From: an uncultured Clostridia bacterium | GTDB lineage: Bacteria > Bacillota > Clostridia > Christensenellales > JAWKQI01 | Reading direction: 5' to 3' | Length of the DNA stretch: 64,000 bases | Assembly (NCBI GenBank): GCA_964453645.1 | Contig: CAYVRJ010000005.1 | Location: 2,808-66,807 of the forward strand | Shown here: positions 1,063-42,369 of the stretch, piece by piece | Layout of the letters: each line of letters begins with the position of its first letter | Position numbering within the stretch: the first letter of the stretch is position 1 | The notes under the pieces: generated by a model | What the model was told of the DNA's origin: nothing | The model's database searches: none | Seen by the model: the letters and a program-made list of their open reading frames with translations, nothing else | Program-made: the position numbers and the translations under genes

Positions 1063-1090
1063 TTGACAAAGCAAATAAATGTTGTATAAT
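1063..1090 (+). promoter_or_regulatory. sigma-70 type promoter of the tRNA cluster
   Basis: TTGACA (1063-1068), 16-nt spacer, TATAAT (1085-1090), about 30 nt upstream of tRNA-Leu. Confidence 0.6.
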
Positions 1091-1709: not shown

Positions 1710-1907
1710 ATGAAAAGCTATTCTTCAAGAGAAGTCATAAAGATACTTCAGGAAAATGGGTGGACGTTAAAAAGGATTGAGGGCAGTCATCATCATTTTG
1801 TGCACGAGAAGCAAAAAGGCGTTGTAACCATTCCGCACCCTAAAAAAGATATTCACCCAAAAACATTGATGAGTATATTAAAACAAGCGGGAATAGACAT
1901 CAGTTAA
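1710..1907 (+). CDS. hicA: HicA family mRNA-interferase toxin
   Basis: 65 aa. The pattern REVIKILQENGW...GSHHHF...IPHPKKDI is typical of HicA/YcfA. It sits directly upstream of a HicB-like gene. Confidence 0.85.
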   Translation: MKSYSSREVIKILQENGWTLKRIEGSHHHFVHEKQKGVVTIPHPKKDIHPKTLMSILKQAGIDIS

Positions 1908-1920
1908 CGGAGGGCTTATT

Positions 1921-2319
1921 ATGAACAAAAAGGATATATATATTTACCCAGCAATATTTGATTATTCGGAAAACGGCATTGCGGTTGAGTTTCCCGATAT
2001 ACCAGGCTGCGTGACATGCGCCGATACTGAAGAACAAGCCCTGCATATGGCAAAAGATGCTCTTCGGGGCCACTTGCTGACGTTAGAGGATATTGGCACA
2101 GAGTTACCCGAAGCTACGCACCTCAAAGATATTCAACTCATTGAAGACCAGAGAGCTGTCTTAATTGAAGTATGCCTTGCCTTCTATCGTGAGGCGATAA
2201 AAAATAAAGCGGTAAAGAAAACTTTAACAATTCCCTATTGGCTGAATGAACTTGCAGAGAAGGAACAAGTGAATTTTTCTTATGTGTTGCAAAATGCCTT
2301 AAAAACACTTTTAAAGTAG
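1921..2319 (+). CDS. hicB: HicB family antitoxin with C-terminal DNA-binding tail
   Basis: N-terminus YPAIFDYSENGIAVEFPDIPGCVTCADTEEQALHMAKDAL is a HicB-type fold signature. The gap after hicA is 13 nt. Confidence 0.85.
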   Translation: MNKKDIYIYPAIFDYSENGIAVEFPDIPGCVTCADTEEQALHMAKDALRGHLLTLEDIGTELPEATHLKDIQLIEDQRAVLIEVCLAFYREAIKNKAVKKTLTIPYWLNELAEKEQVNFSYVLQNALKTLLK

Positions 2320-25665: not shown

Positions 25666-28296
25666 ATGAGTAAAAAATACGTGTATTTGTTTAGCGAGGG
25701 TAATGCGGAAATGAAGGACTTGCTGGGGGGCAAAGGTGCCAACCTGGCAGAAATGACGGGGTTAGGTTTGCCCGTACCCCAGGGATTCACTGTTACCACC
25801 GAAGCGTGTATCAAGTATTACGACGACGGCAAGGTGATCTCCGAAGAAGTGCAGAACCAAATCTATGATGCACTGGCAAAGTCCGAAGAGATCAACGGAA
25901 AGAAGTTCGGCGATGTGAACAACCCATTCTTAGTATCTGTACGCTCGGGAGCGAGGGCATCTATGCCGGGCATGATGGATACTATTTTAAATTTGGGCTT
26001 AAACGACACGACAGTGGAGGGGCTTGCAAAGCTCACCAACAACCCTCGGTTTGCTTATGACAGTTACAGAAGATTTATTCAAATGTTTGCAGACGTGGTT
26101 ATGGACGTGCCCAAGCCATTGTTTGAACACATTTTAGAGACAGCTAAGGAAAAGAAGGGCGTGAAGTTGGACACCGATCTCACCGCCGACGATTTAAAAG
26201 ACATCGTCACAAAGTTTCTTGCCTTATATAAAAAGGAAAAGGGTGCGGAGTTCCCCCAAGACCCAAAAGAGCAGCTCATCGAATCGGTGAAGGCTGTATT
26301 CCGCTCTTGGGACAACCCCAGAGCCATCGTGTATCGCAGGTTAAACGACATCCCCGGCGATTGGGGCACTGCCGTAAACGTGCAAGCCATGGTGTTTGGC
26401 AATATGGGAGACGATTCGGGCACAGGCGTTGCCTTCACCCGCAACCCCTCCACCGGCGAAAACAAGCTGTACGGCGAATTCTTAATGAACGCACAGGGCG
26501 AGGACGTTGTTGCGGGCATTCGCACACCCCAGCCCATCACCCAGCTTCAAAATTCCAATGCCGATGTATACAACCAGTTTGTTGAAATTGCAAAGAAACT
26601 GGAAAACCACTACAGAGATATGCAGGACATGGAGTTTACCATCGAGCGTGGAAAGCTCTTTATGTTGCAAACTAGGAACGGAAAGCGCACAGCCGCTGCT
26701 GCTCTGAAAATTGCGGTAGATTTGGTTTCGGAAGGAAAACTCACCAAGGAAGAGGCACTGCTCAAGGTGGATCCCAAGCAGTTGGACGCACTGCTCCACC
26801 CCCAATTTGACCCAGCATCCCTGAAAGCTGCAAAATCCATTGCCAAGGGTTTACCCGCATCTCCCGGTGCGGCCTGCGGTAAGTTATATTTCACTGCCGA
26901 GGATTGTCAGGCTTCCGTGGCACGGGGCGAGACGTGTATCTTAGCCCGTCAAGAGACTTCCCCCGAGGACATCGAGGGTATGGTTGCCGCTGAGGGTATT
27001 TTAACCTCCCGTGGCGGTATGACTTCCCACGCTGCCGTTGTTGCCCGGGGAATGGGCACTTGCTGTGTTGCCGGTTGCGATGAAATCGTGATCCGGGAAT
27101 TGGACAAGACTTTAACCACCAAAGACGGATCCGTGTATAAAGAAGGGGATTACTTCTCCCTGGACGGCACCACCGGTTTGGTTTATGGCTGTGAAATTAA
27201 AACCATCCCCGCAGAAATGACGGGTGATTTCGGCATCATCATGGGATGGGCGGATCAAGTGCGCAAATTAAAAGTGCGTACCAACGCAGACACCCCAAGA
27301 GATGCCCAACAGGCAATTGCCTTTGGTGCTGAGGGTATTGGCCTGTGCAGAACCGAACATATGTTCTTTGAAGAGGATCGCATTGCGGCTATGCGGGAGA
27401 TGATCATCTCCAAAACCGAGGAACAGCGCAGGCGTGCACTGTCCAAGCTGCTGCCCATTCAAAAGAACGACTTTAAAGAGATTTATAAGGCTATGGGCGA
27501 ACTGCCCGTTACCATCCGCTTCTTAGACCCACCCCTCCACGAATTCCTGCCCACCGATGAAAAGGACATTCGCACACTAGCGGCAGAGATGGCCATCCCC
27601 TACGACGAGCTGACTGCAACCATCGACAGCTTACACGAGATGAACCCCATGCTTGGGCACAGAGGGTGCCGCTTGGCGGTGACATATCCTGAAATTGCCG
27701 AGATGCAGACCAGAGCGGTGATTGAAGCGGCTATTGAAGTGCGCAAGGAGACTAAGTTAAACATTCACCCCGAGATTATGATTCCGCTGGTGGGTGAGGA
27801 CAAAGAGTTCCGCTTGGTGAAGGAGATTGTGGACAAAACCGCCAAGAGTGTTATGGCCGAAAAGGGCGTTGACATTGAATATAAAGTGGGAACCATGATT
27901 GAGATTCCCCGTGCGGCGGTGACTGCCGATGAAATTGCGGTGGATGCACAGTTCTTCTCCTTTGGCACCAACGACTTAACCCAGATGACCTTTGGGTTTA
28001 GCCGAGACGATGCCGGAAAGTTCTTGGATCACTATTATGCGAGAAAGATTTACGAGTCTGATCCCTTTGCGAAGTTGGATCAAAAGGGCGTAGGTAAGTT
28101 TATTGAAATTGCTGTGAAGCTGGGTAAGCAGACTCGGCCGGACATCAAGCTTGGCATTTGCGGCGAGCATGGCGGAGAGCCTTCTTCCGTGATATTCTGC
28201 CACAACTTGGGCATTGATTACGTTTCCTGTTCACCTTTCCGTGTGCCCATTGCACGCTTGGCAGCTGCTCACGCTGCAATTCTTGAAAAGAAATAG
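25666..28296 (+). CDS. ppdK: pyruvate, phosphate dikinase
   Basis: Phosphohistidine loop GGMTSHAAVVARG and C-terminal PEP-utilizer barrel (GICGEHGG). ATG at 25666 follows AGGAGG. Confidence 0.96.
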   Translation: MSKKYVYLFSEGNAEMKDLLGGKGANLAEMTGLGLPVPQGFTVTTEACIKYYDDGKVISEEVQNQIYDALAKSEEINGKKFGDVNNPFLVSVRSGARASMPGMMDTILNLGLNDTTVEGLAKLTNNPRFAYDSYRRFIQMFADVVMDVPKPLFEHILETAKEKKGVKLDTDLTADDLKDIVTKFLALYKKEKGAEFPQDPKEQLIESVKAVFRSWDNPRAIVYRRLNDIPGDWGTAVNVQAMVFGNMGDDSGTGVAFTRNPSTGENKLYGEFLMNAQGEDVVAGIRTPQPITQLQNSNADVYNQFVEIAKKLENHYRDMQDMEFTIERGKLFMLQTRNGKRTAAAALKIAVDLVSEGKLTKEEALLKVDPKQLDALLHPQFDPASLKAAKSIAKGLPASPGAACGKLYFTAEDCQASVARGETCILARQETSPEDIEGMVAAEGILTSRGGMTSHAAVVARGMGTCCVAGCDEIVIRELDKTLTTKDGSVYKEGDYFSLDGTTGLVYGCEIKTIPAEMTGDFGIIMGWADQVRKLKVRTNADTPRDAQQAIAFGAEGIGLCRTEHMFFEEDRIAAMREMIISKTEEQRRRALSKLLPIQKNDFKEIYKAMGELPVTIRFLDPPLHEFLPTDEKDIRTLAAEMAIPYDELTATIDSLHEMNPMLGHRGCRLAVTYPEIAEMQTRAVIEAAIEVRKETKLNIHPEIMIPLVGEDKEFRLVKEIVDKTAKSVMAEKGVDIEYKVGTMIEIPRAAVTADEIAVDAQFFSFGTNDLTQMTFGFSRDDAGKFLDHYYARKIYESDPFAKLDQKGVGKFIEIAVKLGKQTRPDIKLGICGEHGGEPSSVIFCHNLGIDYVSCSPFRVPIARLAAAHAAILEKK

Positions 28297-28308
28297 GGGA
28301 TTGCTTTC

Positions 28309-28513
28309 TTGGGGCGCTGCCCCAAACCCCGTTTAGGAGACTTTTTGTAAAAAGTCCCCTAAAAACCCCAAAAACTTTTTTAACGCAAAGCTATCACTTT
28401 GCTAAGGTGTTTATAATATATAATACGCCCTAGCAAAAGCGATAGCTTTTGTCTTGAGGGGTGCAGGGACCCAGTCCCTGCCTCGGGGGTCAAAGGGGGA
28501 CGAGTAGTCCCCC
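28309..28513. repeat. mosaic hairpin-module element, locus C
   Basis: TTGGGGCGCTGCCCCAA; an M4 variant; two M5 copies flanking an AT-rich core; GGGGTGCAGGGACCCAGTCCCTGCCTCGGGGG; GGGGGACGAGTAGTCCCCC. Confidence 0.9.
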
Positions 28514-28546
28514 TTTTCCGTGTAGCATGAGTCCACAAAATAAAAT

Positions 28547-28582
28547 ATAAAAAAACCTTCTTTAAATTTATCAAAGAAGGTT
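28547..28582 (-). terminator. rpsU intrinsic terminator
   Basis: Minus strand: AACCTTCTTT-gataaattt-AAAGAAGGTT followed by TTTTTTTATATTTT. Confidence 0.7.
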
Positions 28583-28842: not shown

Positions 28843-28871
28843 ATTATAGTTGAATTGACTTCTATTGTCAA
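28843..28871 (-). promoter_or_regulatory. rpsU promoter
   Basis: Minus strand TTGACA (28871-28866), 17 nt, TATAAT (28848-28843). Confidence 0.65.
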
Positions 28872-39359: not shown

Positions 39360-39519
39360 CAATATTGCTCGAAGTTGCCATAGACAGCAGGTGCGGTTCC
39401 GCTTAAAAGATTATGCCCGCCGAGGTGATGAACGTATAACCTATGTTTGTTATGCTCTTATCAAGGTGACTTTGAAAGAGCATTTTTATATTGAAGGTTA
39501 TAAGGAGGAGGTGAACAAT
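39360..39519 (+). promoter_or_regulatory. rplJ (L10) leader with attenuator-type terminator hairpin
   Basis: Hairpin ATGCTCTT-16 nt-AAGAGCAT (39452-39483) followed by TTTTTATATT, about 30 nt before the rplJ RBS. Firmicute rplJL operons are known to be autoregulated at a leader. Confidence 0.5.
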
Positions 39520-40070: not shown

Positions 40071-40442
40071 ATGGATAGAAAACAAATTTTAGAAGCAATT
40101 GAAAGCATGACCGTGCTGGAGCTTTCCGAACTGGTTAAAGAAATGGAAGAAAAATTCGGTGTGAGCGCAGCTGCTCCCGTTGCCGTTGCTGCTGGCCCCG
40201 TTGCCGCTGCTGGCCCCGCTGCTGAAGAAAAGACTGAGTTCGACGTGGTATTAAAAGACGCTGGCGCAGAAAAGATTAAGGTTATCAAAGTTGTTCGCGA
40301 AGTAACTGGCCTTGGTCTGAAAGAAGCAAAAGATCTGGTTGAAGGCGCTCCCCAGAAGATTAAAGAAGCAATTGCTAAAGACGAAGCTGATAAGGTTGCT
40401 GAAAAGTTCAAGGAAACAGGCGCAACTGTTGTTGTTGAATAG
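40071..40442 (+). CDS. rplL: 50S ribosomal protein L7/L12
   Basis: 123 aa, Ala-rich hinge, C-terminal [22 protein letters not shown]. Confidence 0.97.
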
Positions 40443-40456
40443 TAATTAAAATCATT

Positions 40457-40489
40457 AAAGGCATGAGAATTCTTTCATGCCTTTTTTTG
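40457..40489 (+). terminator. rplL intrinsic terminator
   Basis: AAAGGCATGA-loop-TCATGCCTTT followed by TTTTT. Confidence 0.8.
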
Positions 40490-40518
40490 TTGCAAAATTT
40501 GTCGGAATATGGTATTGT
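40490..40518 (+). promoter_or_regulatory. promoter of small peptide gene 1
   Basis: TTGCAA, 17 nt, TATTGT with TG extension (TGGTATTGT). Nearly identical to 42057-42085. Confidence 0.55.
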
Positions 40519-40572
40519 GTGGTTGGGTGTTTGAAGCGGTAGGCGGTCTCCCTATAGAAGGGGGGTGAGCGC

Positions 40573-40647
40573 ATGCAGCAGAAACTAACGTTGGTCATTC
40601 TTTTTCTAATGACTCTGATAGTTCTGATTCTTGTTGCAAAAAACTAA
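40573..40647 (+). CDS. 24-aa hydrophobic peptide, candidate type I toxin
   Basis: MQQKLTLVILFLMTLIVLILVAKN, one TM helix. SD GGGGGGTGA lies 4 nt upstream. The 3' end overlaps a convergent small RNA. Confidence 0.5.
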   Translation: MQQKLTLVILFLMTLIVLILVAKN

Positions 40648-40728
40648 CCGTCCTCACTCGCAAAAATGTTGACGGTTAGCCTTTTAATCAATTAATTTGG
40701 GTGAGACCGTCCTATCGAACACCCACCA
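40637..40728 (-). ncRNA. candidate antisense small RNA 1 (approx 92 nt)
   Basis: Starts about 7 nt after a perfect consensus promoter. Ends at hairpin CTAACCGTC-18 nt-GACGGTTAG (40644-40679), which is followed by TTTTTT only on the minus strand. Confidence 0.5.
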
Positions 40729-40733
40729 TCTTT

Positions 40734-40762
40734 ATTATATTTCCCCTCTTTTAAAATGTCAA
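40734..40762 (-). promoter_or_regulatory. consensus promoter of small RNA 1
   Basis: Minus strand TTGACA (40762-40757), 17 nt, TATAAT (40739-40734). Confidence 0.6.
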
Positions 40763-40818
40763 TATTTCTTGCAGTGTTTGTGCACTTGATTTATAATGTA
40801 TGCGAGGAGGATGTGGCC

Positions 40819-42027
40819 ATGTGTGATACAATGGGTTTTATCAAAGGCGGTAACGCTTTCTTTGCCAAAAACAGCGACCGTAGTCCCAACGAACCTCAGG
40901 TTGTGGAATTTCATCCCGCCAAAAAGTGTGAGGAATCAATCCTTAAGGTTACCTATATTGAAATTCCCCAGGTAAAGCACACCCATGCCGTGCTGCTCTC
41001 CCGTCCCGCCTGGATGTGGGGTGCAGAGATTGGGGTGAACGATTGCGGGGTTTGCATCGGCAACGAAGCGGTGTTCACCAAAGGTTCCTATCCCCCCTCG
41101 GGGCTTACCGGCATGGATTTGCTGCGACTCGCCCTGGAGCGGGGAGACAGTGCAAAAGCTGCACTGGAACTCATCATAACCCAACTGGAAGAGCACGGCC
41201 AAGGGGGTAATTGCGGTTTTGATAAAAACTTTTACTACGACAACTCCTTCCTCATCATGGATACCAGCGAACTCTATATTTTAGAAACTTCGGCAAAGGA
41301 TTGGGTGTATAAAAAGGTAAACGTTGCCACTATTTCCAACAGATTGTCTATTGGCACAGATGGCACGGCATATCACGCGGGCACCCCCTATGACTTTAAA
41401 AAGAAACATTCCGATCCGGTGTATTCCCATTTTTCGGGTTCTAAGGAGCGCCAGCGCCAAACAGCAAGCTGCCTACCCGGTGCACGGGATGTGCTGGGCC
41501 TCATGTCTGCCCTGCGCACCCACGGTGAATTTGCGCAAAACCCCCTGACTTGCGGTAATGTCCGTTCGACCTGTATGCACGCCGGGGGCTTGATTGGCGA
41601 CCACACCACCCAAAGTATGATCGTTGAACTGGGTACGACCCCCATCATTTGGACGACGGGTTGTTCCACCCCCTGTATATCCGTCTTTAAACCCTATGCC
41701 TTTGGAAATGCACCTGTTGGCCCGGTATTTAAACCGGAAGATACCCAGAGCGCTCAGTATTGGTTGAAGCGAGAGGAATTTCACAGGAGTGTGATTGGAA
41801 AGCAACTTCCCTTTGAATATTATATGGAGCGGGATGCGTTGGAGCAAAGTTTTATAGACCGAGCCGATGGCCTTTCCCGGTTGGAAATGGAGCAACTCTC
41901 CCGCACTGCCCACGAGGAGGAGTGTGCCTTTTATAGCAAGTGGGGCAAACGGGTATTTGTTTCCCTACAGTGCTCCAGCCGGTTTTTAAATTATTGGAAA
42001 AAGAAAAACAGTACACTTAACAAATAA
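40819..42027 (+). CDS. peptidase C69 / secernin-like Ntn hydrolase
   Basis: The protein begins MCDT, placing the nucleophile Cys at residue 2, and carries AKNSDRSPNEPQ. ATG at 40819 lies 7 nt after GAGGAGGA. The track start at 40756 overlaps the small-RNA promoter and is rejected. Confidence 0.75.
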   Translation: MCDTMGFIKGGNAFFAKNSDRSPNEPQVVEFHPAKKCEESILKVTYIEIPQVKHTHAVLLSRPAWMWGAEIGVNDCGVCIGNEAVFTKGSYPPSGLTGMDLLRLALERGDSAKAALELIITQLEEHGQGGNCGFDKNFYYDNSFLIMDTSELYILETSAKDWVYKKVNVATISNRLSIGTDGTAYHAGTPYDFKKKHSDPVYSHFSGSKERQRQTASCLPGARDVLGLMSALRTHGEFAQNPLTCGNVRSTCMHAGGLIGDHTTQSMIVELGTTPIIWTTGCSTPCISVFKPYAFGNAPVGPVFKPEDTQSAQYWLKREEFHRSVIGKQLPFEYYMERDALEQSFIDRADGLSRLEMEQLSRTAHEEECAFYSKWGKRVFVSLQCSSRFLNYWKKKNSTLNK

Positions 42028-42056: not shown

Positions 42057-42085
42057 TTGCATTATTTGTAGAAACATGGTATTGT
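42057..42085 (+). promoter_or_regulatory. promoter of small peptide gene 2
   Basis: TTGCAT, 17 nt, TATTGT with TG extension. Paralogous to 40490-40518. Confidence 0.55.
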
Positions 42086-42154
42086 TGATACATAAGAGCG
42101 CACCCCTCGGGTGGACGGTTTTGTTCCCCAATACGAAAGATTGGGGGTGATACT

Positions 42155-42244
42155 ATGGATCTCAGCTTAGCATTACAACTGCTTCAGCTAGTAGTATCTG
42201 TTATCGCCTTAATTGTTGCAATTGAGCAGCTAAAGAGCCGATAA
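42155..42244 (+). CDS. 29-aa hydrophobic peptide, candidate type I toxin (holin-like-toxin resemblance)
   Basis: MDLSLALQLLQLVVSVIALIVAIEQLKSR. SD GGGGGTGA lies 4 nt upstream. The 3' end overlaps a convergent small RNA. Confidence 0.5.
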   Translation: MDLSLALQLLQLVVSVIALIVAIEQLKSR

Positions 42245-42334
42245 AACGAGAACAGCCGTCTATTTTCGACTGAACGGCTGTTCCGATTATAAACCGTTTT
42301 GTATGGAGCAGACCGTTCACCCGGTGTGCTCTTT
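42241..42334 (-). ncRNA. candidate antisense small RNA 2 (approx 94 nt)
   Basis: Consensus promoter upstream. Terminator GAACAGCCGT-14 nt-ACGGCTGTTC (42250-42283) is followed by TCGTTTTAT on the minus strand only. Confidence 0.5.
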
Positions 42335-42340
42335 GTATAT

Positions 42341-42369
42341 ATTATACAGTTCCCCTGGCACACTGTCAA
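42341..42369 (-). promoter_or_regulatory. consensus promoter of small RNA 2
   Basis: Minus strand TTGACA (42369-42364), 17 nt, TGTATAAT (42348-42341). Confidence 0.6.

Follow-up and report, generated by a model that had tools for sequence, protein, structure and literature searches.

A candidate type I toxin-antitoxin-like cassette with bsrG/SR4 topology downstream of rplL in an uncultured Clostridia bacterium

In a 64,000-nucleotide stretch of DNA from an uncultured Clostridia bacterium (GenBank assembly GCA_964453645.1, contig CAYVRJ010000005.1, positions 2,808 to 66,807; hereafter the window), rplL (40071-40442) is separated from a peptidase-like gene (ATG at 40819) by a 330-bp spacer that holds a compact cassette (cassette 1, 40490-40762) in which an open reading frame (ORF) for a hydrophobic peptide of 24 amino acids (aa) is faced by a perfect consensus promoter on the opposite strand. 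We consider it likely, with a probability of roughly 70%, that cassette 1 is a functional type I toxin-antitoxin (TA)-like module with the topology of bsrG/SR4, belonging to a family that has no name in the libraries searched. This reading is built on sequence comparison. The window contains a second, diverged cassette (cassette 2, 42057-42369), and at least 10 further distinct cassettes were recovered from IMG/VR viral contigs, ENA and Logan metagenome assemblies and one NCBI genome. What these sequences show directly is the elements themselves and how they are conserved, covariation in the RNA helices, and an ORF retained together with its Shine-Dalgarno (SD) sequence.

Results

Organization of cassette 1

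Cassette 1 starts just downstream of the rplL stop codon (40442) and the rplL terminator (40457-40484). Its sense promoter (40490-40518, plus strand) consists of a -35 box TTGCAA (40490-40495), a 17-nt spacer and an extended -10 box TGgTATTGT (40510-40518). The hexamers match the consensus at 8 of 12 positions, which is below the threshold of the promoter scan and accounts for the absence of this promoter from its output; the TGGTATTGT box recurs in cassette 2, there with a TTGCAT -35 box, and in the viral locus L172. Transcription is predicted to start at ~40525, and a leader of ~48 nt separates the promoter from the SD sequence GGGGGGTGA (40560-40568, plus strand), which lies 7 nt before the ATG and is partly sequestered by 40547-40553. 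The ORF (40573-40647, plus strand), our candidate toxin gene, encodes MQQKLTLVILFLMTLIVLILVAKN, a single hydrophobic helix with lysines at positions 4 and 23 and a 17-residue hydrophobic core; the whole peptide is free of Pro and Gly. The promoter, leader, SD and 24-aa ORF named in the initial annotation of the region are thus all present. A hydrophobic ORF of <60 aa that comes with a ribosome-binding site of its own is a generic hallmark of type I systems, and the combination is rare here: only three ORFs of 15-60 aa on both strands of the window (128 kb of strand) join an SD to a strongly hydrophobic stretch, and two of these three are the ORFs of cassettes 1 and 2.

The second promoter of the cassette (40734-40762, minus strand; TTGACA at 40762-40757, 17 nt, TATAAT at 40739-40734) matches the consensus at 12 of 12 positions and points back at the ORF, as first proposed. 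Only three perfect TTGACA-17-TATAAT promoters occur in the window against 0.02 expected (none in 100 shuffles). The third, at 28843-28871 on the minus strand, drives rpsU, and perfect boxes with a 16-nt spacer (1063-1090, plus strand) precede a cluster of three tRNA genes (1121-1389). Since rpsU and the tRNA cluster carry them, perfect sigma-A boxes appear to mark very highly expressed genes in this genome.

The transcript from the minus-strand promoter, the candidate antitoxin, is predicted to run from 40727 to ~40632 (~92-96 nt) and to consist of a 5´ stem-loop, a linker of ~13 nt and a terminator. The terminator is the minus-strand form of a central hairpin (40644-40679; 9-bp stem CTAACCGTC/GACGGTTAG, 18-nt loop), which on this strand is directly followed by U6; the corresponding T6 (complement of 40638-40643) falls within codons 22-24 of the ORF, so that the hairpin and its placement inside the last codons can be read in the sequence as originally described. 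On the plus strand, the same hairpin is followed by CCUUUUAAUC, has a poor U-tract in both window copies and would act as an internal stem-loop or a weak terminator. The antisense RNA folds at -36 kcal/mol compared with -19.7 ± 2.6 kcal/mol for shuffled sequences (z = -6.25). An antisense RNA with its own promoter and terminator and with complementarity to the mRNA, the other generic feature of type I systems, is therefore predicted in silico. Rfam searches, at gathering thresholds over the whole window and at permissive E-values for both cassettes and five related loci, returned no family.

Two arms connect the ends of the cassette. The 5´ arm of the leader (40525-40556, plus strand) pairs with 40698-40724 in a long-range helix resembling helix P1 of bsrG, as indicated by folds, the inverted repeat and arm energies; within it, CUCCC (40548-40552) is a cis anti-SD that has the SD as its alternative partner. 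The 3´ arm (40698-40727) has two roles according to strand, as the 3´ half of the P1-like helix on the plus strand and as the 5´ stem-loop of the antisense RNA on the minus strand. Downstream of it lies a U-rich run (AUCUUUAUUAUAUUU..., 40728-40747, plus strand) that overlaps the antisense -10 box and is the probable 3´ end of the peptide mRNA. Comparison of the cassettes suggests that the mRNA reads through the central hairpin to ~40730-40745. If so, the antisense RNA is complementary to it over its full length, beyond the hairpin. The predicted antisense RNA of ~92 nt described at the outset thus stands, and the 3´ end of the mRNA, which was left open there, is given a probable position.

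A diverged second copy

Cassette 2 (42057-42369) lies directly 3´ of the peptidase-like gene and repeats the order of elements. Its sense promoter (TTGCAT 42057-42062, 17 nt, TGgTATTGT 42077-42085, plus strand) is followed by a 5´ arm (42094-42125, plus strand), an SD GGGGGTGA (42143-42150, plus strand) held in a 7-bp hairpin with 42124-42132, and an ORF of 29 aa (42155-42244, plus strand) encoding MDLSLALQLLQLVVSVIALIVAIEQLKSR. Next come a central hairpin (42250-42283), a 3´ arm (42307-42333, plus strand) and a perfect consensus antisense promoter (42369-42341, minus strand) for a predicted antisense RNA from ~42334 to 42236 (minus strand). Both cassettes share their promoter boxes, GGACGGT/GGCGGT as leader motif, the SD, CCGTC/GACGG as hairpin core, and the antisense promoter; the ORF and the arms have diverged. 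The cassette 2 peptide is related to a peptide of the wider family (P0047; 45% identity over 22 aa, E = 1e-4), and searches with the padded 29-aa sequence retrieved the query alone.

Relatives in phage and metagenome contigs

A motif derived from both antisense RNAs (consensus promoter, 20-28 nt, ACGGTCT) found 47 loci in IMG/VR, most of them true homologous cassettes with a convergent small hydrophobic ORF; several groups of matches were unrelated promoters and were set aside. Further scans added three loci (L172, L251 and L268). The pattern TTGACA-N17-TATAATANANATAGA was discarded, as it picks up a generic AT-rich phage promoter context and its only true members were L251 and L268. Independently, a peptide profile retrieved 39 clusters of peptides of 29-40 aa in ENA, Logan and NCBI data. 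These are named only 'hypothetical protein', apart from one longer ORF call, from Ruminococcus callidus ATCC 27760, to which UniRef gives the name 'Holin-like toxin', a label that we treat as a lead only. The contigs of three profile-found peptides, including NCBI assembly GCA_902363075.1, all carry the matching flanking RNA elements, and because of this agreement the link between peptide and RNA is cross-validated. A nucleotide profile (nhmmer) identifies exactly two copies in the window, cassette 1 with E = 1.7e-17 and cassette 2 with E = 1.4e-14, values that are partly circular as both copies are in the training set; the relatives found with the motif built from the window copies constitute support independent of this profile.

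The features of cassette 1 recur throughout. In all 11 cassettes analysed, an ORF of 24-36 codons begins 7-9 nt after an SD of the GG(G/A)GGTGA type that is sequestered by an anti-SD 5´ of it, and the stop codon of the ORF lies at or within a hairpin with an invariant ACCG...CGGT core that is followed by a U-tract on the antisense strand. In the peptides, a short polar N-terminus, often VT[YW]S[ED]L, precedes a single hydrophobic helix, and most of them end in a KRK or KKK tail. The predicted antisense RNAs, each convergent with the ORF and under a consensus promoter, measure ~90-115 nt and consist of 5´ stem-loop, linker and terminator. By its antisense RNA, with the two-hairpin structure and the ACCG/CGGT terminator core, each window cassette belongs to the family; by peptide homology cassette 2 belongs to it and cassette 1 does not. 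The initial annotation had singled out loci that keep the RNA and lose the ORF as evidence that would speak against a TA module; cassette 2 and at least 10 homologous cassettes keep both. In a set of closely related cassettes (group A), synonymous changes account for five of the nine variable ORF sites, which is weak evidence for coding selection.

Several relatives adjoin phage integrase, terminase or tail genes, and one (L295) is chromosomal, between genes for an AMP-binding enzyme and a glycosyltransferase. Tandem arrays of four were found with the nucleotide profile in L299, L300 and L301.

A number of further observations were made on these contigs. Head-to-tail arrays of up to four units (L299/L300 1539-2714, L301 54-1295, L134, L160) are arranged such that the antisense promoter of each unit abuts the sense promoter of the next. 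A conserved gene of 46 aa lies ~300 bp 5´ of the chromosomal cassette in three independent assemblies (L295 2046-2186, minus strand; L296; L297). A strong match to the skipping-rope RNA (RF02924, 75 bits) is found at 1843-1923 (minus strand) of L298, an ENA metagenome contig, ~600 bp from a cassette, maybe coincidentally. P0004, P0008, P0012 and P0014, variants of the 35-aa group A peptide, are frameshifted with an extended C-terminus (…NKSKTALSQPERFLL); the shift arises in the A-run before the stop codon and could reflect assembly error or slippage-prone phase variation. Finally, the first ~130 nt of the minus strand of L155 (IMG/VR 3300005253_000481) resemble an antisense RNA of this kind, in that a consensus promoter is followed by a GAGAC...ACGGTCTC hairpin and then by a strong terminator. 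The gene convergent with it is no mini-ORF, and the locus may represent a solo small RNA or a different system.

Covariation of the small-RNA hairpins and the long-range helix

The two-hairpin structure of the antisense RNA was tested on an alignment of 16 sequences. Paired cells amount to 88.7%, compared with 36-47% when the partners are slid, and nine pairs are changed on both sides against 3.1 ± 1.4 in shuffles, none of 500 shuffles reaching nine. The ACCG/CGGT core of the central hairpin is invariant in the 16 relatives, and its outer pairs covary. Wobbles in both hairpins are G.U on the antisense strand, from which it follows that both are selected in the small RNA.

The arms show the opposite strand preference. 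Every sense leader opens with a stretch of 25-35 nt that is complementary to the antisense 5´ stem-loop in its plus-strand form; arm sequences vary between cassettes and match within each. The mean pairing energy is -45.5 kcal/mol for cognate arms and -31.8 ± 7.6 kcal/mol for non-cognate arms, and in 10 of 11 rows the cognate pair comes out first or second. The arm duplex is more stable as sense RNA than as antisense RNA in 10 of the 11 cassettes (45 versus 17 G.U pairs), which argues that the mRNA contains both arms. A role of the arms as DNA operator or transposon ends was considered and rejected on the grounds that they differ between cassettes, co-vary within them and show the sense-strand G.U bias. 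On the plus strand, the 12 nt 3´ of the 3´ arm include 6-9 U in all 11 cassettes. The simplest reading is that the mRNA passes the central hairpin, pairs its 5´ end with the 3´ arm and ends there.

In the modelled long form of the cassette 1 mRNA, the probability that the SD is unpaired increases from 0.31 to 0.58. In cassette 2, the local SD hairpin persists in both modelled forms (SD unpaired 0.17-0.18), and for this reason an SD switch is plausible and not uniformly predicted.

The small RNA may also reach the SD directly. In cassette 1, its CUCACCC (40705-40699, minus strand) is complementary to GGGUGAG (40563-40569) in the SD region, and across the family the C-rich 3´ flank of the 5´ hairpin (CUCACCC, CUCCC or UUCCC) shares homology with the leader's cis anti-SD and could pair with the region of the translation start. 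Short-window tests of the 5´ domain against the translation start region, with dinucleotide shuffles, gave p = 0.017 for cassette 1, p = 0.78 for cassette 2 and p = 0.013-0.28 for the other nine cassettes, with a Fisher combination of ~0.002 over eight independent cassettes. RNAduplex runs on long windows, which these tests replaced, produced artefactual large-loop duplexes with non-significant p values. The complementarity noted at first between CTCACCC and the SD region is thus significant in cassette 1 and absent from cassette 2; the combined test supports it at the family level, where it may be a by-product of arm homology.

Genomic setting

The window genes around the cassettes include PFOR, nusG, rplKAJL with its L10 leader, GGGtGRT, NifU-like, acyl-ACP thioesterase and DnaB_2-domain genes. 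As these surroundings are housekeeping in character, the cassettes do not lie within a prophage. The peptidase-like gene (40819-42027; protein starting MCDTMGF...) is bracketed by both cassettes in direct orientation, and its promoter (TTGCAG 40769-40774, 17 nt, TATAAT 40792-40797) is back to back with the antisense promoter of cassette 1. The protein has a sub-threshold match to Pfam Peptidase_C69 (E = 0.12), and its closest homologues, at 56-60% identity, are in metagenome-assembled genomes of Clostridia and Anaerolineae, with no cassettes beside them; the best homologue in genome contigs (60% identical) showed no synteny. The usual neighbour of rplL is rpoB; here the gene after rplL is the peptidase-like gene. 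In metagenome contigs, the best match to RplL was 70% identical and lacked synteny, a distance that indicates a host without close sampled relatives. An exact look-up of RplL found the locus in only two further assemblies (Logan contigs), both 100% identical.

Elsewhere in the window, an Rfam L10_leader (RF00557, 58 bits) occupies 39360-39497, 5´ of rplJ, as expected for a rplJL operon of the Firmicutes type. The ~250 bp between a pyruvate phosphate dikinase-like ORF (ending at 28296) and rpsU contain several G+C-rich hairpin-like repeats, among them GGGGCGCTGCCCC and GGGGGACGAGTAGTCCCCC; this region (28300-28560) has no evident ORF and no Rfam match reaching the gathering score.

Discussion

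From these elements we infer the two transcripts with their ends, the order in which they pair, a possible role of an RNase and the toxicity of the peptide. The moderately strong sigma-A promoter would give rise to an mRNA of ~200-220 nt for a 24-aa membrane peptide with a single helix. The upstream CUCCC would hold the SD in a hairpin, and the extreme 5´ end of the mRNA would pair with a segment near its own 3´ end in the P1-like helix. From the perfect promoter on the opposite strand, an RNA of ~92 nt would be made in excess, ending at the central hairpin and having its complement in the final codons of the ORF and in the 3´ part of the mRNA. First contact is probably between complementary hairpin loops. 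The resulting duplex would expose the mRNA to cleavage of the RNase III type and free the 5´ arm, such that the anti-SD locks the SD, and the CUCACCC of the antisense RNA may in addition cover the SD directly. Upon loss of the antisense RNA, the peptide would be translated and damage the membrane. The 3´-overlapping type I layout, likened in the initial annotation to txpA/RatA or bsrG/SR4, is supported by the conserved ORF, SD, RNA and P1-like helix.

Several observations weigh against this model. The leader of cassette 1 alone folds no better than shuffled sequences (z = -0.13), and the local plus-strand hairpin of its 3´ arm is weak (-8.6 kcal/mol, z = -1.1), which makes the mRNA 3´ end an uncertain one. 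The 24-aa peptide has no detectable sequence relative, scoring 0.3 bits against the hidden Markov model (HMM) of the family peptides, and it has neither the VT(Y/W)S(E/D)L N-terminal motif nor the KRK tail of most relatives; cassette 1 could be a decaying copy. The lack of significant SD complementarity in cassette 2 belongs here as well. Comparison of the two window peptides and nine relatives with Pfam, NCBIfam and PHROGs, the kind of toxin-profile search suggested at the outset, gave nothing significant and matched no family. As both other assemblies with the locus are identical to the window, there is no within-species signal of selection. Finally, hydrophobic mini-proteins under antisense control need not be toxic.

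This last point leads to the rival that survives best, which we nevertheless regard as unlikely: a translated, non-toxic small membrane protein tuned by a cis-antisense RNA, which would have a physiological or a phage-related function, e.g., in modulating a membrane complex, in excluding superinfection or as an accessory of the holin-like kind. The architecture alone is no proof of toxicity, relatives occur in phage or prophage contigs beside integrase, terminase or tail genes, and the UniRef name 'Holin-like toxin' is joined by a faint match of one relative to a PHROG holin family (E = 0.19). However, the cassettes have traits that characterise type I TA loci and not accessory subunits (Fozo 2010, as summarised in the T1TAdb paper, PMC8594479): they form tandem arrays, they are scattered over chromosomal and prophage sites without a conserved partner gene, they show a double repression, by SD sequestration and by an antisense RNA from a consensus promoter, and they have the bsrG-like P1 topology.

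It is improbable that only the small RNA of the antisense strand is functional, trans-acting or structural, with the ORF incidental and untranslated. The strongest signals of the locus do belong to this RNA, i.e., the perfect promoter, the fold (z = -6.25) and the covariation, and the G.U pairs of both hairpins favour the minus strand. Yet an ATG ORF of 24-36 codons with a GGAGG-type SD and a hydrophobic core is kept despite strong nucleotide divergence, a peptide profile leads to 39 clusters, synonymous changes are enriched in group A, and the plus-strand promoter is conserved. Even less credible is a miniature inverted-repeat mobile element or other repeat with accidental promoters. Inverted arms of ~25-30 bp flank each unit and the copies are multiple and sometimes in tandem, but the arms are cassette-specific, begin exactly at the predicted transcription starts and have mismatches that are G.U on the sense strand, indicative of selection at the RNA level; neither target-site duplications nor near-identical dispersed copies were seen, and the window holds two diverged copies only. 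An accidental meeting of the rplL terminator region with a bidirectional terminator and with the divergent promoter region of the peptidase-like gene, suggested by the back-to-back arrangement of the antisense and peptidase-like gene promoters, is the least probable of all and is effectively refuted by conservation, as the improbable set of elements recurs in cassette 2 and in unrelated genomic contexts and homologues of the peptidase occur in other genomes without a cassette.

A type I TA-like module thus remains our preferred reading of cassette 1. A broader proposal, to which we give slightly less than even odds, is that the cassettes make up an undescribed and fairly large type I family that is specific to gut Oscillospirales (Ruminococcus-type Clostridia) and to the phages of this group, with single units or arrays of at least four and with a hairpin that has a dual role. 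One DNA hairpin would then specify both the 5´ stem-loop of the antitoxin and, for the toxin mRNA, either the 3´ half of a closing helix or the terminator; binding of the antitoxin would switch the mRNA leader to an SD-locked form; and the 24-aa peptide would be among the shortest type I toxins of Gram-positive bacteria. Modules of this kind could serve prophage maintenance or phage exclusion in a major group of gut commensals.

Type I loci are nearly invisible to annotation, with a gene of 24 codons that is below gene-calling limits and a partner that is an RNA. If confirmed, the present cassettes would give a new family an RNA-plus-peptide signature that can be searched for, with members on chromosomes and on many contigs of uncultivated gut phages, and would add an independent natural case of the bsrG-type mechanism, the displacement of a 5´-3´ helix by the antitoxin. 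They would also be a source of candidate small membrane-active peptides and of counter-selection or plasmid-stabilisation tools for poorly tractable anaerobes. Should the peptide prove non-toxic, it would still be a conserved tiny membrane protein under strong antisense control.

Comparison with known type I systems

Our literature search found no description of a type I system in gut Clostridia of the Ruminococcus/Oscillospirales type, and the T1TAdb paper makes no mention of Ruminococcus (PMC8594479). Searches of GenBank phages and PLSDB plasmids with peptides and cassettes (tblastn/blastn) gave no relevant match; the same held for family members against GenBank phages, which should include those of C. 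difficile. The CD-toxin/RCd systems of that species are convergent, have toxins of 34-53 aa that are hydrophobic at the N-terminus and Lys-rich at the C-terminus, and are present in multiple prophage-borne copies, in the phiCD630 prophages and near CRISPR arrays (PMC7699646). By description, they resemble the present family in having a Clostridia host, and the relatives described here likewise carry a terminal KRK or KKK and frequently lie on phage contigs. Both peptides of the window are shorter, and that of cassette 1 has no Lys-rich tail.

In the SprA1/SprA1AS system of S. aureus, the toxin is a 30-aa membrane peptide (PepA1), the two RNAs overlap at their 3´ ends, and SprA1AS is thought to pair with the SD or start codon through its non-overlapping 5´ domain (PMC8594479). 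The complementarity between CUCACCC and GGGUGAG in cassette 1 is a parallel to this, although it comprises only 7 bp and is not conserved in cassette 2. The par locus of E. faecalis pAD1 (Fst/RNA II) has in common with the cassettes the convergent promoters, a bidirectional terminator used by both RNAs, a sequestered SD and a 5´-end helix (PMC7472228). It differs in that a second contact is made via the direct repeats DRa/DRb and that the overlap leaves out the ORF, whereas the large repeats of our cassettes are inverted and therefore imply self-pairing of the mRNA; the only direct repeat that gives SD complementarity is the 7-nt GGGTGAG (40563-40569 and 40699-40705). The peptide does not belong to the Fst/Ldr family, as there is no Pfam match and the PXXXG motif is absent from MQQKLTLVILFLMTLIVLILVAKN.

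The txpA/RatA system of the B. subtilis skin element (Rfam RF01776) has the same 3´-overlapping convergent layout. TxpA is 59 aa and RatA ~220 nt. The RatA model produced a full-length, sub-threshold alignment to the cassette 2 RNA in which the -10 region, an AAGAG box and also the 5´ hairpin are included; its 23.4 bits (E = 0.29-0.96) are below the gathering score of 49 and do not place the RNA in the family, and cassette 1 RNA gave no match at E ≤ 10.

Homology to bsrG/SR4 of B. subtilis prophage SPbeta (BsrE-G-H/as-Bsr group; Pfam Hol_Tox, PF16935) was not detected. Neither the two window peptides nor nine relatives match Hol_Tox at E ≤ 10, whereas BsrG as positive control scores 34.5 bits (1.8e-8); hhalign against BsrG gave a probability of 0.65%, and the family HMM was negative against BsrG. 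There are also differences in dimension, with peptides of 24 aa (29 aa in the second copy) rather than 38 aa and an antisense RNA of ~92 nt with two hairpins rather than ~180 nt with four. In bsrG the terminator is separate; here, the 3´ half of the P1-like helix is the antisense 5´ stem-loop and apparently the mRNA terminator as well.

In Gram-positive families, the antisense RNA is located at the 3´ side and overlaps the mRNA (PMC8594479), and the layout of the cassettes matches this class, with bsrG/SR4 as the closest counterpart by arrangement of elements. Helix P1 of bsrG is formed by nt 1-33 and a 3´ segment to which SR4 is complementary; once SR4 has bound, the 5´ part of the mRNA is released and the SD helix lengthens from 4 to 8 bp, and of the two promoters that of the antitoxin is the stronger (PMC3834814). 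As in bsrG/SR4, the two genes described here are convergent with the antisense RNA over the end of the ORF and the 3´ untranslated region, and the candidate antitoxin has, by sequence, the stronger promoter. The SD is in a short hairpin of similar make-up, CUCCC-UAUAGAA-GGGGGGUGA compared with UCCCC-UAUGAAA-GGGGUGGGA in bsrG. A predicted pairing of 40525-40556 with 40698-40724 gives cassette 1 the P1 architecture, linking the mRNA 5´ end to the 3´ segment targeted by the antisense RNA, and the antitoxin terminator is complementary to an internal stem-loop of the mRNA, which is the site of first contact in bsrG (PMC3834814). The prophage association of bsrG/SR4 is paralleled by the relatives of the cassettes.

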